Shown here: piece by piece, positions 54,541-62,981 of the stretch
How positions within the stretch are numbered: the first letter of the stretch is position 1
Layout: each line of letters starts with the position of its first letter
Assembly: GCA_964473825.1 (NCBI GenBank)
Contig: CAYYQL010000001.1
Coordinates: forward strand, 192,001 to 256,000
Direction: 5' to 3'
Length of the DNA: 64,000 nucleotides
Source of the DNA: an uncultured archaeon
GTDB lineage: Archaea > Asgardarchaeota > Thorarchaeia > Thorarchaeales > Thorarchaeaceae
Position numbers and translations under genes: made by a program
Notes under the pieces: generated by a model
What the model was told of the DNA's origin: nothing
The model's database searches: none
Seen by the model: the letters and a program-made list of their open reading frames with translations, nothing else

Positions 54541-55806
54541 TCAGAGCGGTTCAAAGAACCGGGCGTCGGTATAGGCATTTTGAAAGAAAGCATCGCTCTC
54601 GAAGTCCACATATTGGAGTTGTCTGCGAATCCTCTCAAGATCTTGTAAGGAATCGGGAGAAAGGAGAAGACGGTCTGCACCCCTTATCGCAGCAGACTCG
54701 GCGCGCTCGAATACTGCATTGTGTAGTTTCGGAAAGAGCCCTATCTCAACCGAATCATCGATGTTAAGATTCATACCAAAGGCCCCGGATATATGCACGC
54801 CGCAGACTTCATCCGTGTCAAGTCCACTGTGCGCCAAGAGTGACATAACTGATGCTCCGATGGCCGCTTTTGACTCTTGAAGCATCCTGACATCATGTTG
54901 GCTTATGTAAACTGGTCGTCCAGTTCCGGAGTCCACTGCCTGAGATAGGACGTAGGATCTGGAATGCCCAAATTCTGTCAACCAGAGTGAATCGGTAGAT
55001 CTGTCAAGTGAACCAGTTCTATCCATGAGTCCTTTACGTCTTAGCTCCGCGAGCACTGACACAGCCCCTGTGCCACAGATACCGATGGGCCTCTCGCCAG
55101 CAAGCGTTTCGTTTTGAGGACGGAGTGTCTGAGAGTCTATGGAAGTCACGACTATGCTGCCGGGAACAGCCTCAACACCACAGTCCAGACTCATTCCTTC
55201 AAATGCTGGCCCAGATGCTGCAGAGCCAATGCATCCCTTTCCATCTTTGAAAACAGATACTTCAGTATTTGTTCCGACATCAATGAAGAGGTCAGATTCC
55301 AAATGTTCCAACACCTTGAATCCTAGCAACATGCACAATGCATCAGAGCCAACAAAGGATTGGAGAGGAGCTGGTGTATAGTAGACTCCACTAGATCCCT
55401 CCCAGATGTTGAGATCTGAAATCTCACCTCGTTCTGGCTCATGCACCTGCGACTCATAGGGTGGGTCAAGAAGTGAGTCAACGGCATGGTCGAAGAAGAG
55501 ATGATGCATGACAGTATTTCCAACCAGCACGGCGCGTTCGATTGCAGAAGTGTCTGAACCAAGCCGATAGAGGAGTTGAAGCACTGTATCGCCAACAGCA
55601 CTCCGAATCATCTCTCGAGTCTCTCTTCTATGGGCATCGGATTTAGTACTGTATCGCGCCCGCGTCATGATGTCTAAACCAATCTGGTTCTGCGGGTTTG
55701 GGAGAGATGCATCTGCCACAAGAGCAGTATGCTCCAAGTCCAGAAGATGTATTCGTATCGTGGAAGTGCCAAGGTCAACCGAGAGTCCTAGTTTCGACGG
55801 TCCCAA
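54541..55806 (-). CDS. ASKHA-domain corrinoid reductive activator-like protein (RACo/RamA, DUF4445), no Fe-S domain
   Basis: DLGTST, NPQ..G.DI, GNTVMHH, DVGTNTE, GPAFEG, GICGTG, Q.DVR.LQ..KAAI, GAFG. Confidence 0.88.
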   Translation of the reverse strand: MGPSKLGLSVDLGTSTIRIHLLDLEHTALVADASLPNPQNQIGLDIMTRARYSTKSDAHRRETREMIRSAVGDTVLQLLYRLGSDTSAIERAVLVGNTVMHHLFFDHAVDSLLDPPYESQVHEPERGEISDLNIWEGSSGVYYTPAPLQSFVGSDALCMLLGFKVLEHLESDLFIDVGTNTEVSVFKDGKGCIGSAASGPAFEGMSLDCGVEAVPGSIVVTSIDSQTLRPQNETLAGERPIGICGTGAVSVLAELRRKGLMDRTGSLDRSTDSLWLTEFGHSRSYVLSQAVDSGTGRPVYISQHDVRMLQESKAAIGASVMSLLAHSGLDTDEVCGVHISGAFGMNLNIDDSVEIGLFPKLHNAVFERAESAAIRGADRLLLSPDSLQDLERIRRQLQYVDFESDAFFQNAYTDARFFEPL

Positions 55807-55853
55807 AGATGATACATCCGTTTACCGGGTAACATGAAGATGAATCGTAGAGG

Positions 55854-56303
55854 CTATCGGACAATGAGGACTGGACATGTAGCGTCCTTGGTGACCTTAT
55901 CACTGACAGAGCCAACAAAGAGCCTCTTGATTCCACTGACCCCACGAGACCCCATTATGATCATATCCACATCCCGTTCTTCAGCTATCTCAATAATCCT
56001 ACCAGCAGGGTCTCCATGCGAGATCAGATCCGTTACCTCACACCCGTGCTCCTCAGCTAGTCTCTTGGATTTCTTCAGTATGTCCTCACCCACCTTCTGA
56101 AGAGCAAGGAACGGCTGATCGGAGACTGTATCTTGATAGGGGGTCGCACTCACCAGCATGGGAACCACGTACAACAGAAGAACGTCGGCCCCCAGAGGAG
56201 GCCCTATGGCAGAACCATATAGGACGGCCTTGTCTGAGTGTTCGGAACCATCTACCGCTATAAGGATCGTCTTGATTTCAACCGGTTCTAAATCGCTGGT
56301 CAT
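55854..56303 (-). CDS. Universal stress protein (UspA family)
   Basis: ILIAVDGSEHS, GDPA..I, MGSRG......GSVSDKV...A.CPVLIVR. Confidence 0.96.
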   Translation of the reverse strand: MTSDLEPVEIKTILIAVDGSEHSDKAVLYGSAIGPPLGADVLLLYVVPMLVSATPYQDTVSDQPFLALQKVGEDILKKSKRLAEEHGCEVTDLISHGDPAGRIIEIAEERDVDMIIMGSRGVSGIKRLFVGSVSDKVTKDATCPVLIVR

Positions 56304-60440: not shown

Positions 60441-61691
60441 CTAATCAACATGGACAATCCCTGTCTTCTCAAGGTCAACAGATCCGTCGGCCGATTTTGC
60501 TGTCACGACCAAGGACTGGTCCCCAATTTGCACTGCCCGGATGTAGAACTGCAGTCTCATGTTCTCCCCCACACCTACGAACTGGATAGACTTCGATTCA
60601 CTTCCGATGGATATCTCTAGCCCAGGCGTGAGCTTCAATTCCACATTGATATTGTTTGCAGCGCCTCGGCCTTTATTGAACAACTCGATGTCGAAGACGA
60701 GCTCATCCCCTAGTCCGCAGGTGATATCAGCGGGGGTAAGCTGAATGTCAACATCCGATGGAGCGGGCTCTATGTCAAATCGGAGTGTGTTGCTGTGTTT
60801 GTTCACCAGAACTTCTTGACCTTCGAGTGTCAGTCTTATCGGACCCAGTACCCCGTCACCACTCAACACCGGATTAATCACCATCAACCAAGAGCCTGTC
60901 TTGGAAAGCTTACTATCTATGTCAGGCTCACTTACCAGACTGAGGCTGTTCGACAGACTGAAGCGCTTGTCTACAACTCGTACAGGAACAGGGCATTCGT
61001 ATCTTAACTCGAACTCAATGGGGGTCCTTGACTTAACACTCTCTCTGCGTTGTCCAGCCCACTCTAGGACCACTTCGGTCTGCTGAGCCCGTCGTACTGA
61101 GGCAACTACAAACTCAATCAGTGGCTTCTCCCTCTCATCAGGTTTGAAACGGCGAACCGCATCGTCAATTTCCTTTGCCGGAATCTCGTCTCCTTCACAG
61201 AGAACTCCAACAGCAATCCGTGCAAGCTCGTGGGCATGACCGGGACTGCCACTGGACCCGCTGAGTCGTTTTGTTGATTTCTTGAAGAGGTTAACAGCTG
61301 TATCGAAACTCCTAGCGGCTAGGTGACAGAGTGCAGCAATTGCCAATGCACGAGTAGACTCACTCGGCTTCTTCTGTCGAAACAGGTGGTCTGCAGCCTC
61401 CGAATAGAGAGAACCTGCTTGCGGGTACTGCGCGTCCTGAGCAAGGAGCCTTCCCGCCTCCTGCTTCATGCGGGCAGCACGAACGTGATCTTCGTATTCC
61501 AGTGCGCAATATGCAGACTCTCTGTAGTACTTGACAGCGAAGTCGATCTGCTCCGCCTCGACGAATAGACTTGCAGCCTTCTCGTACTCACTACTCGCGT
61601 AATCGGGATAACCCTCTACGGCCTCGTCAAGTGCCTTCTCGACATGTTTTTTGGCTTTGCTCTCTGGGTCTCTTCGAAAGAAGCTGAACAT
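60441..61691 (-). CDS. SNAP-like alpha-solenoid fused to two Ig-like beta-sandwich domains
   Basis: N-terminal ~200 aa of SNAP-type repeats; C-terminal beta-rich domains with N.G.G.A.N..V (CARDB/DUF11-like). Confidence 0.78.
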   Translation of the reverse strand: MFSFFRRDPESKAKKHVEKALDEAVEGYPDYASSEYEKAASLFVEAEQIDFAVKYYRESAYCALEYEDHVRAARMKQEAGRLLAQDAQYPQAGSLYSEAADHLFRQKKPSESTRALAIAALCHLAARSFDTAVNLFKKSTKRLSGSSGSPGHAHELARIAVGVLCEGDEIPAKEIDDAVRRFKPDEREKPLIEFVVASVRRAQQTEVVLEWAGQRRESVKSRTPIEFELRYECPVPVRVVDKRFSLSNSLSLVSEPDIDSKLSKTGSWLMVINPVLSGDGVLGPIRLTLEGQEVLVNKHSNTLRFDIEPAPSDVDIQLTPADITCGLGDELVFDIELFNKGRGAANNINVELKLTPGLEISIGSESKSIQFVGVGENMRLQFYIRAVQIGDQSLVVTAKSADGSVDLEKTGIVHVD

Positions 61692-61766
61692 GAGATTTAA
61701 CTCCACTTGATACCAATAGACTCGTTAGTGGCCTCAAGAGGTGTTTTATCGCTTTCGGCCGTGGTG

Positions 61767-62981
61767 ATGCATTTGGAAGAAACACCCATCTACTGGAAAA
61801 ATCCTGAGAAGAACACATTTCAAGTCAGAGTTCAGCAGTGTAGAAAAGAAGACGAACACTTCGAGGTACGTCTAGATCAGCCAGTGGTGCGCCCTGAAGG
61901 AGGTGGTCAGGCTGGAGACCGTGGTCATCTACACTCTGGCGAGAATGTCGTCGATGTCTTTGATGTTGTTGATAGACACGGAGAAACAGTTCTTATGTGC
62001 AGCCAGCTCATAGCGGAGGGGAGCGAAGCAGTTCTGGAAATCGATATGGGTTGGCGAAGAGGCCTCATGCAGAATCACTCTGCTGAGCATCTCTTCGTGA
62101 TGATGATGAAGAGTGTCAGACCGGAGACCCGACTCGGCTACATCTGGATTACTGGTGACAAGGGCGTAGTGGATATTCATGCCGACTTGATCAAATTCAA
62201 TGATCTCGTGAGAGGAGAGAAGAGAGTCAATGACGTAATCGACCAAGGTATACCTATGACATGGAAACTGGTTGCCCCAGATGAACTCCCAGACGAAGTC
62301 CGCGCACGGGACGGAATTGAGGCGAAACACGAACAGATTCGGGTCGTGTCTTTCGGAGACCTCGACAGCTCAGCCTGTTCGGGAACCCATGTTTCCAACA
62401 CGGCCGAGATAGGTTTCTTCAAAGTTGTAGATTTCAGACGACTTGAAGATGGTGTCAGAGTTGAGTTCGTCACAGGGTCTCATGCAAAGCAGGCTACGAC
62501 AGAGGTGTACAACATCACTCTGGACAAGAGGCATGAGTACACCTTCGAAATGGAACAGCTAGGAGCGATAATCGAGAAGAGCAGGATACTCGATAACCAA
62601 TTGAATCTATTGCTCGGCACATCACAAGAGCTACTGGCTCAAGCAATCGACTGGAAACGCTTGGGCAAAGTCAGCTTCGACGCGAAATACCTGCCAGGAT
62701 TCGAAATTGGAGAGTTAAGGAAACTCATCAAGCAGATTCCCTTCACAGGTGCAGGTGCAGCCCTCTTCTTTGTTCCGGACGAAAAGCCGAGTTTCATCTT
62801 CGTCACAAATGAGATTGACAAAGAGGCAAAGAATCTGATAGCAGATGTGGTGGAAGACCTCGGAGGTAGAGGCGGGGGAAGTCGTGATGTTTACACCGGT
62901 GGATTCTCTGAAGTCGGGCAACCATTGGAGTTGTATCAGAAGATGCTGGAAAGGATCAGATTTCGCCTGCAGACTCTCTGA
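61767..62981 (+). CDS. Alanyl-tRNA editing protein (AlaX-L type, C-terminal DHHA1)
   Basis: PEGGGQAGDRG, QNHSAEH, CSGTHV, GGRGGG. Confidence 0.9.
   Translation: MHLEETPIYWKNPEKNTFQVRVQQCRKEDEHFEVRLDQPVVRPEGGGQAGDRGHLHSGENVVDVFDVVDRHGETVLMCSQLIAEGSEAVLEIDMGWRRGLMQNHSAEHLFVMMMKSVRPETRLGYIWITGDKGVVDIHADLIKFNDLVRGEKRVNDVIDQGIPMTWKLVAPDELPDEVRARDGIEAKHEQIRVVSFGDLDSSACSGTHVSNTAEIGFFKVVDFRRLEDGVRVEFVTGSHAKQATTEVYNITLDKRHEYTFEMEQLGAIIEKSRILDNQLNLLLGTSQELLAQAIDWKRLGKVSFDAKYLPGFEIGELRKLIKQIPFTGAGAALFFVPDEKPSFIFVTNEIDKEAKNLIADVVEDLGGRGGGSRDVYTGGFSEVGQPLELYQKMLERIRFRLQTL

Follow-up and report, generated by a model that had tools for sequence, protein, structure and literature searches.

The P0001 gene and its features

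We analysed a window of 64,000 nucleotides (contig C1:192001-256000; "the window" hereafter means this whole stretch) from an archaeal assembly of 3.27 Mb that is 95.7% complete, focusing on a gene whose product, called P0001 below, combines a helical N-terminal domain predicted to adopt the fold of the SNAP (Sec17) proteins with two immunoglobulin (Ig)-like domains. Close relatives of the source genome carry the name Thorarchaeota, and the sequencing runs listed for the assembly are DNA from microbial-mat metagenomes, none of them RNA. The gene comprises the following features:

60441..61691, minus strand: main coding sequence (P0001), a SNAP-like/Ig-like protein of 416 amino acids, from the open reading frame list and translation, with 147 homologs
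61701..61704, minus strand: Shine-Dalgarno-like GGAG, 10-13 nucleotides 5' of the P0001 ATG, read from the sequence
61665..61691, minus strand: N-terminal motif M-F-x-F-[LFM]-[KR]-[RKS]-D-P, residues 1-9, from ortholog columns
61080..61667, minus strand: SNAP-like helical domain, residues 9-204, collinear with Sec17/SNAP helices 5-14, from Pfam, profile and fold
60768..61076, minus strand: Ig-like beta-sandwich domain 2, residues 206-308, BatD/DUF11-like, from the model and invariant columns
60444..60761, minus strand: Ig-like beta-sandwich domain 3, residues 311-416, of CARDB/DUF11/TRAP-beta type, from Pfam and fold

The stop codon lies at 60441-60443 and the product begins with MFSFF. An alternative start, GTG at 61706, would add five residues only. 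Given the spacing of the GGAG and the methionine that 36 of 38 orthologs have at this position, we take the ATG at 61691 as the real start. The peptide strings quoted in the first-pass annotation of this DNA are all present in the translation, and the full-length form of P0001 is single-copy in the source genome.

P0001 is predicted to be a soluble protein with two halves

The AlphaFold2 model of P0001, for which 38 orthologs were used as input, reached a mean predicted local distance difference test (pLDDT) of 92.2 and a predicted template modelling score (pTM) of 0.78. It consists of ten helices (about residues 9-204) followed by two beta-sandwiches (206-308 and 311-416). Residues 9-144 form seven regular helices of 16-17 residues each, joined by 3-residue turns, and residues 152-203 form three shorter ones.

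By combining hydropathy and sequence, with the 38 orthologs for the N-terminus, we found no signal peptide or transmembrane helix, since the highest 19-residue Kyte-Doolittle mean is 1.33 and belongs to a buried repeat helix. The C-terminus is a beta-strand, with no C-terminal anchor, and the N-terminus is charged after five residues, a feature kept in the 38 orthologs. An earlier claim that two beta-sandwich domains are present without a signal peptide is therefore confirmed by the hydropathy and by the model. As judged from its sequence, P0001 is most likely soluble and cytosolic.

The N-terminal motif is well conserved, with D8 found in 37 and P9 in all 38 of the Thorarchaeota orthologs, and forms related to MFxFLKRDP are seen in other Asgard classes. 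Residues 1-10 have a mean pLDDT of 56, falling below 50 for residues 1-5. The motif also resembles the start of the bacterial family DUF6435 (PF20027), with 22-24 bits for a cut-off of 26.9 and E-values (E) below 0.01 in 6 of 31 members, which may reflect a shared short N-terminal motif or chance.

The helical domain is closest to SNAP by profile and by fold

First, the best Pfam family for P0001 was SNAP (PF14938): at 28.8 bits it exceeded its cut-off of 25, and residues 29-173 aligned on profile positions 71-216; the tetratricopeptide repeat (TPR) family TPR_12 gave an E of 0.06. When the single P0001 sequence was compared with all Protein Data Bank (PDB) sequences by phmmer, the only match with E<0.01 was zebrafish gamma-SNAP (2ifu, E 7.8e-4), P0001 residues 12-100 being placed on residues 16-102 of the chain.

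Second, we used a profile made of 31 N-domains of the family, 14 of them from distant Asgard classes. Against PDB sequences this profile found gamma-SNAP at 7.1e-11, Sec17 at 7.6e-11 and alpha-SNAPs at 1.6e-8 to 5e-7; designed consensus TPRs came from 3e-8 on, and the best natural TPR outside SNAP was found at 2.2e-5. On Sec17 the alignment was collinear over residues 131-281, thus running through the region of the C-terminal L..L..A..EGD helix. Among the 31 N-domains, which come from several Asgard classes, PF14938 was the commonest family (22 matched with E<0.01), compared with 13 that matched TPR_12.

Third, the model was submitted to an unbiased exhaustive structure comparison with 48,161 representative chains, in which the top ranks were Sec17 (Z 14.8, root mean square deviation (rmsd) 3.8, 202 residues) and gamma-SNAP (Z 14.7, rmsd 3.0), and in which TPRs of the LGN, Pins and KLC type reached Z 11-12.4 with rmsd 5-6.5. 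In a second structure comparison, ranks 1-11 and 13 were all occupied by the SNAP family. There, Sec17 (9nly_H) had Z 15.9 and rmsd 3.5 over 198 residues, with model residues 5-204 on chain residues 89-289, gamma-SNAP had Z 14.7 and rmsd 2.7, and alpha-SNAP had Z 12.9. HAP40 appeared at Z 13.7-13.8 and rmsd 2.8-3.1 over 184 residues, with 16-18% identity. The fold match takes in the non-repetitive C-terminal bundle of SNAP.

The gamma-SNAP alignment proposed in the first-pass annotation is therefore real, as both the 2ifu match and the family profile indicate, but its N-terminal register is not the best one. Structurally, the domain fits SNAP residues ~89-289 best and not the SNAP N-terminus; HMMER returns both registers because the SNAP-type fold is repetitive.

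A different explanation would be that P0001 is a generic prokaryotic TPR-plus-Ig scaffold whose likeness to SNAP comes from a 40-residue repeat style of the TPR_12 kind and from convergence. SNAP belongs to the TPR superfamily, repeat folds converge easily, and models of helical repeats may attain a best Z of ~14 by their common arrangement alone. The identity of P0001 to SNAPs is 11-14%. PF14938 also matches generic TPR proteins in four control genomes (bacteria and a methanogen), above cut-off in two of them, and part of several non-Asgard TPR clusters from Bathyarchaeota and Methanobacteriota in the ESM Atlas, which we treat as leads only. The designed consensus TPRs found with the family profile and the N-domains that also match TPR_12 point the same way, and so do the packing alanines, which alone are conserved across classes in the helical domain. 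Moreover, a canonical TPR_12 protein of the same genome scores higher than P0001 on PF14938.

However, this last protein, used as a negative control, behaved quite differently. The top PF14938 scorer of the genome (284 amino acids, contig C11) reached 110.9 bits on TPR_12 against 54.5 bits on SNAP, and no SNAP appeared among its PDB matches, which were LGN, Pins and consensus TPRs. With P0001, the profile search separates SNAPs from all natural TPRs by about six orders of magnitude; in the fold searches their lead over generic TPRs is 2-3.5 Z units, and their rmsd is about half as large. In addition, the match of 198 residues (model 5-204) includes the non-repetitive bundle, and HAP40, a known divergent SNAP relative, ranks next. 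On balance we regard the generic explanation as rather unlikely, although it keeps serious weight. A further search with the N-domain profile, word-indexed and restricted to proteins of 108-377 amino acids, returned only family fragments and one weak TPR; as neither SNAPs nor bacterial TPRs came up, it was uninformative.

Together, the profile, the fold and the negative control bear out the earlier claim that the N-domain is SNAP-type and not a generic bacterial TPR. On the model and the alignments, we consider it a genuine, if shortened, representative of the SNAP-type helical fold. A specific common ancestry with eukaryotic SNAPs is likely, if short of proof because of the low identity.

The gene of the control protein (L001:1339-2193, minus strand), whose product has an acidic tail, is directly preceded upstream by an open reading frame with the small-GTPase motifs GPYESGKSS and NKQD (L001:2262-3344, minus strand).

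P0001 lacks several features with which SNAP works

No SNARE-driven fusion cycle runs without SNAPs. The full SNAP fold has 14 helices, that is a twisted sheet of nine helices and a C-terminal bundle, and P0001 has ten. From the alignment to Sec17 89-289, SNAP helices 1-4 (~88 residues) have no counterpart, and neither has the hydrophobic membrane loop between helices 1 and 2. The hydrophobic motif of P0001 is another one, at its extreme N-terminus. Hence MFSFF, said earlier to recall the membrane-contact motif of SNAPs, is not positionally equivalent to it, the SNAP loop lying in the missing part.

At the other end, the C-terminal bundle of SNAP contacts the NSF N-domain and its C-terminal tail, with a penultimate leucine, stimulates NSF. 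In P0001 the helices run directly into the Ig-like domain at residue 206, so that a free NSF-activating tail with its penultimate leucine is absent. Missing all of these parts, P0001 is most likely not a working SNAP.

We also searched the genome for partners. No SNARE was detected in this 95.7%-complete genome with PF05739 (none at E 0.1) or PF00957 (one background match of 14 bits), models that divergent SNARE-like proteins could escape. Two Cdc48-type AAA+ genes with an NSF-N-like CDC48_N domain are present, one ~52 kb away and the other on another contig; to our knowledge such genes exist in all archaea. No AAA+ gene adjoins the P0001 family gene in any lineage inspected.

These data bear on the idea that P0001, alone or with its neighbour P0002 (see below), is a working proto-SNAP that recruits a Cdc48-type AAA+ protein to helical-bundle complexes on membranes, as a forerunner of the SNAP-NSF-SNARE system. 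The retained fold does include the bundle that contacts the NSF N-domain in SNAP, the two Cdc48-type genes could supply the partner, and the N-terminal peptide is hydrophobic and conserved. Yet no SNARE was detected with the two models, the parts of SNAP listed above are absent and neither of the Cdc48 genes is close by, which makes this idea very unlikely.

The Ig-like domains resemble CARDB, BatD and TRAP-beta

In domain 2, G278, G283 and P284 are invariant across Asgard classes, and BatD matched this domain in the ortholog P0138 with 24.9 bits for a cut-off of 24.1. In domain 3, the motif N339-G341-G343-A345 is invariant in Thorarchaeota, N339 also across classes. P0001 itself stays below the DUF11 cut-off (18-20 bits for 24.6), and orthologs exceed those of CARDB (27.7 and 23.5 bits; cut-off 22.7) and TRAP_beta (28.4 and 22.8 bits; cut-off 22.4). 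Domain 3 matches repeats of giant proteins of 1000-6600 amino acids, with E down to 1e-26, one of which is named a TIGR01451/DUF11 repeat protein.

By fold, the Ig-like domains matched the MG domains of alpha-2-macroglobulin and C3 (Z 12.6-13.0, the highest being alpha-2-macroglobulin with domain 3), chain 8rjc_6 of the Sec61-TRAP complex (Z 11.8) and CARDB (3idu; Z 11.2, rmsd 2.5, 99 residues). A profile of the C-terminal half found nothing at E<0.06 among PDB sequences. From these sequence matches, we assign the Ig-like domains of P0001 to the prokaryotic CARDB/BatD/TRAP-beta type.

The first-pass annotation had instead assigned this half to a TRAPP/adaptin-type module. The lowest Foldseek E-value was indeed that of a large chain of yeast TRAPPII (7u06_A, 1106 residues; E 2e-10 over 628 columns). 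However, its superposition is poor (template modelling score on the query (TMq) 0.29, rmsd 18.5, 8% identity), a rigid-body alignment of multi-domain chains being a weak test. Tandem-Ig proteins such as protein 4.2 (1.8e-9) and transglutaminase reach similar E-values, and TRAPPII does not appear in the top 50 rows ranked by Z-score in the second structure comparison. The BBSome chain 6vbu_1 (residues 483-588) reached Z 11.6, no better than many Ig-like sandwiches.

In Pfam, among 20 C-terminal halves, TRAPPC13_C matched four (best 1.8e-5; for example 18.7 bits for a cut-off of 27.9), Alpha_adaptinC2 (PF02883) two (E 0.0024) and TRAPPC13_N one, all below cut-off, and no TRAPPC9/10 family, that is no large TRAPP subunit, matched P0001 or any of the 20 halves. 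The genome also carries two Bet3-like TRAPP genes, on another contig (C11:52653-53045 and 55746-56117).

That P0001 would be a miniature relative of the large TRAPP subunits or of adaptin appendages, sharing its origin with TRAPPC9/10/13 or coat appendages and acting as a tether or as an accessory to a guanine-nucleotide exchange factor, could draw on the Foldseek E-value, the sub-threshold matches and the Bet3-like genes. Considering the poor superposition and the absence from the best 50 by Z, and with the Ig-like domains reaching the cut-offs of CARDB, TRAP_beta and BatD and of no large TRAPP subunit, we hold such a relationship to be extremely unlikely and the likeness to TRAPP and adaptin to be an analogy of architecture only. 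Assignment to CARDB/BatD/TRAP-beta is what the first-pass annotation itself had named as evidence against its view of this half.

CARDB and BatD families are mostly extracytoplasmic, and domain 3 resembles repeats of giant proteins of which the named one is of TIGR01451/DUF11 type. One could therefore imagine that P0001, like most CARDB/DUF11 proteins, is exported or exposed at the cell surface by an unrecognised route. However, P0001 has neither the signal peptide nor the anchor that are the hallmark of such proteins, its hydropathy and charged N-terminus speak for a soluble protein, and TPR/SNAP-type domains are typically cytosolic, so that we rate export the least probable of the explanations considered here. 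A cytosolic use of CARDB-type Ig-like domains is unusual for a prokaryote, and parallels the Ig-like sandwiches found in eukaryotic coats and tethers.

The P0001 family is found in Asgard archaea

A word-indexed search returned 147 relatives, almost all of 415-416 amino acids with ~50% identity, nearly all the named ones being Thorarchaeota. Searching 1.84 billion representatives exhaustively brought in further relatives that match over their full length, of 410-441 amino acids and with 20-27% identity, and those with names belong to Hod-, Hel-, Odin- and Ranarchaeia. Overall, the named members come from Thor-, Hermod-, Hod-, Hel-, Odin-, Loki- and Ranarchaeia only.

When 400 genomes of the phylum were searched with a profile, ~270-280 of them, from ~15 of 33 Asgard families, contained a strong match over the full length (E < ~1e-30). 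All 85 genomes of P0001's own family are among them; in the largest family 134 of 135 genomes gave a match, which was strong in most of them and weak in the others. Closed genomes of 4.4 and 6.0 Mb from one Asgard family also have strong matches. In the remaining Asgard families, matches were weak and partial where there were any. Two archaeal clusters (Thorarchaeota and Promethearchaeota) are the only ones in the ESM Atlas with the whole architecture, everything else being tandem CARDB/DUF11 proteins from Planctomycetota. As far as names are known, the family is thus restricted to Asgard archaea, a point in favour of the first-pass interpretation.

All domains of P0001 are about equally conserved, pairwise identity being 48-55% within Thorarchaeota and 20-23% between classes. 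The residues invariant across classes are only structural (packing alanines, G278, G283, P284, N339 and G363), and this fits a scaffold.

P0001 lies tail-to-tail with a SNAP-like paralog

Two neighbouring genes were analysed along with P0001:

59699..60430, plus strand: P0002, a stand-alone SNAP-like paralog of 243 amino acids, convergent with P0001, from homologs, hhalign and fold
61707..62981, plus strand: AlaX-like (tRNA_SAD) gene, the divergent upstream neighbour, from the open reading frame

The stop codons of P0001 and P0002 are 10 nucleotides apart. The first in-frame ATG of P0002 (59648; 260 amino acids) is 17 codons earlier than 59699. Its orthologs have ~244 amino acids and start where P0002 has Met18 (MEDEC...), which makes 59699 the probable true start.

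P0002 has 140 homologs of ~244 amino acids, most of them with PF14938, and a mean column identity of 73%. It aligned with the N-domain profile of P0001 by hhalign (probability 96.7, E 3.7e-10), and its only natural PDB sequence matches were alpha-SNAPs, at ~1e-3. The model of P0002 is all-helical (pLDDT 96.3) and its best fold match is Sec17 (Z 14.8, 222 residues), with a smaller margin over other repeat proteins than for P0001.

P0002 was found only in the own family (78 of 85 genomes) and in a single sister genome, there at a distance of 6.7 kb. In ~70 of the 72 own-family genomes in which both genes could be located, they are tail-to-tail within ~10-30 nucleotides, and all 12 named pairs of their orthologs have neighbouring locus tags. 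Since kin genomes are not independent, we regard this pairing as a linkage kept by descent, which may reflect function.

Outside Thorarchaeota, the genes downstream of P0001 relatives of the Hod-, Hel- and Odin-type and others are unrelated to P0002; those of distant relatives (241, 289, 242 and 663 amino acids) gave probabilities of at most 0.2 against the P0002 profile. The pairing is therefore specific to Thorarchaeota. A prediction of the P0001-P0002 complex returned a score of 0.00, which gives no verdict and was not used either way. Of the proposal that P0001 and its neighbour form a membrane-remodelling module, the part that survives is a SNAP-like paralog lying tail-to-tail across Thorarchaeota; with no SNARE detected and no tie to membranes, the remodelling itself does not.

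The divergent tRNA_SAD neighbour is also present in a complete Thorarchaeota genome and beside the 27%-identical relative P0125. Its position is thus kept, with no evident functional link to P0001. Beside that relative, an alanyl-tRNA synthetase gene follows the AlaX-like gene. The TTG start of the AlaX-like gene in the window is probably too early, as an ATG at ~61767 opens MHLEETPIYW. Near the ortholog P0156 lies a gene for a HEAT/TPR repeat protein of 521 amino acids (L013:7909-9474, minus strand), separated from it by two unannotated genes (289 and 244 amino acids).

Other SNAP-like proteins are encoded in the same genome. A paralog of 591 amino acids (L008:31-1806, minus strand; ~C1:297779-299554) lies ~42 kb past the end of the window. 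Its layout comprises N-terminal SNAP-like helices, a CARDB-like Ig domain (21.2 bits, residues 243-314) and ~265 unmatched residues, and it aligned with the family profile by hhalign with probability 96.6 and E 6e-10. The ESM Atlas holds a Thorarchaeota cluster of 600 amino acids in which 97% of the members carry PF14938. For a protein of 665 amino acids (L003:1270-3267, plus strand; ~C11:66733-68730), SNAP was the sole Pfam family (45.1 bits); it contains two SNAP-like stretches and has no PDB sequence match, and its gene is ~10-14 kb from the two Bet3-like TRAPP genes.

P0001 as a candidate cytosolic scaffold

Taking all our observations into account, we propose, with a probability of roughly 0.6, that P0001 is a cytosolic non-enzymatic scaffold or adaptor made of two parts and conserved in many Asgard lineages. 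From the fold, the family relationships, the distribution and the synteny described above, we infer how it might bind, to what, and in which cellular role. First, a conserved polar face of the helical sheet would grip a helical or solenoid client, by analogy with SNAP on the SNARE bundle and HAP40 on huntingtin. Second, the rigid arm formed by the tandem Ig-like domains would serve as a second binding platform or as a spacer. Third, the N-terminal MFxFLKRDP peptide may be a short additional docking element. In Thorarchaeota, P0002 may act in the same process.

Several points weigh against this scaffold reading, beyond those already counted in favour of a generic TPR protein. Across Asgard classes, the surface of the helical domain shows no conserved polar residue, so that no one client common to the family is evident. 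Outside Thorarchaeota, the lineages inspected have no conserved partner gene beside P0001 relatives. CARDB-type domains are usually extracellular. Finally, any case built on SNAP is tempered by the ease with which repeat folds converge and by the missing features that make SNAP work.

Compared with the first-pass interpretation, we retain a soluble, Asgard-restricted protein with a SNAP-type domain, two Ig-like domains and a paralogous neighbour, and abandon the TRAPP/adaptin relationship, the MFSFF loop and the membrane remodelling.

We found no description of an Asgard SNAP relative or of an archaeal SNAP-like TPR in the searchable literature, and two structure-based surveys of Asgard-eukaryote homologs, published in 2026, are silent on SNAP and NSF in their main text. 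A SNAP fold in this fusion and in this lineage is therefore new as far as the searchable literature goes. The P0001 family would give SNAPs a candidate prokaryotic root, being conserved, cytosolic, single-copy and widespread in Asgard archaea, with a helical half nearest to SNAP.

One may go further and suppose that this Asgard-wide family, with its stand-alone paralogs, is the stock from which SNAP/Sec17 and HAP40 arose, and that in the archaeon it already acts as an adaptor bringing a Cdc48-type AAA+ ATPase to complexes of helical bundles on membranes. We consider this speculative and decidedly improbable; if true, SNAP would count as a eukaryotic signature protein so far unrecognised, and some of the machinery that recycles fusion complexes would be older than SNAREs. 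With orthologs so common among Asgard archaea, it should be feasible to study interactions, provided that a cultured strain carries one.

Comparison with known systems

The large subunits of TRAPPII, Trs120/Trs130 (TRAPPC9/10; 7u05, 7u06), and TRAPPC13 share with P0001 a cytosolic alpha-solenoid followed by Ig-like domains, but the TRAPP large subunits are two to three times larger.

CARDB, DUF11, BatD and TRAP-beta (PF07705, PF01345, PF13584, PF05753; 3idu) resemble the Ig-like half by fold and by the N-x-G-x-G-x-A motif, and the tandem arrangement recalls the CARDB/DUF11 arrays of Planctomycetota. Unlike these proteins, P0001 has no export signal and carries a fused SNAP-like domain, an architecture found in Asgard archaea only.

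The P0002 family is a paralog of the N-domain of P0001, with Sec17 as the best fold match for both. It differs by its 12 helices, by having no Ig-like domains and by being much more conserved.

The SNAP family (PF14938; 1qqe, 2ifu, 3j96, 9cru, 9nly) provides the best match of P0001 by both profile and fold. About 200 residues of P0001 correspond to SNAP ~89-289, that is five helices of the twisted sheet and the C-terminal bundle, and the helices of 16-17 residues with short turns are alike. P0001 differs by having no helices 1-4 with their membrane loop and no free tail, and by its own MFxFLKRDP motif.

HAP40 (F8A; 6x9o, 9yr6, 8vlx) is a single-domain metazoan huntingtin binder with a long disordered insert and no Ig-like domains, and the profile gives it little support (E 0.03). 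By fold it comes next after Sec17 and gamma-SNAP, and, as we propose for P0001, it uses a SNAP-type fold as a scaffold outside the fusion cycle.

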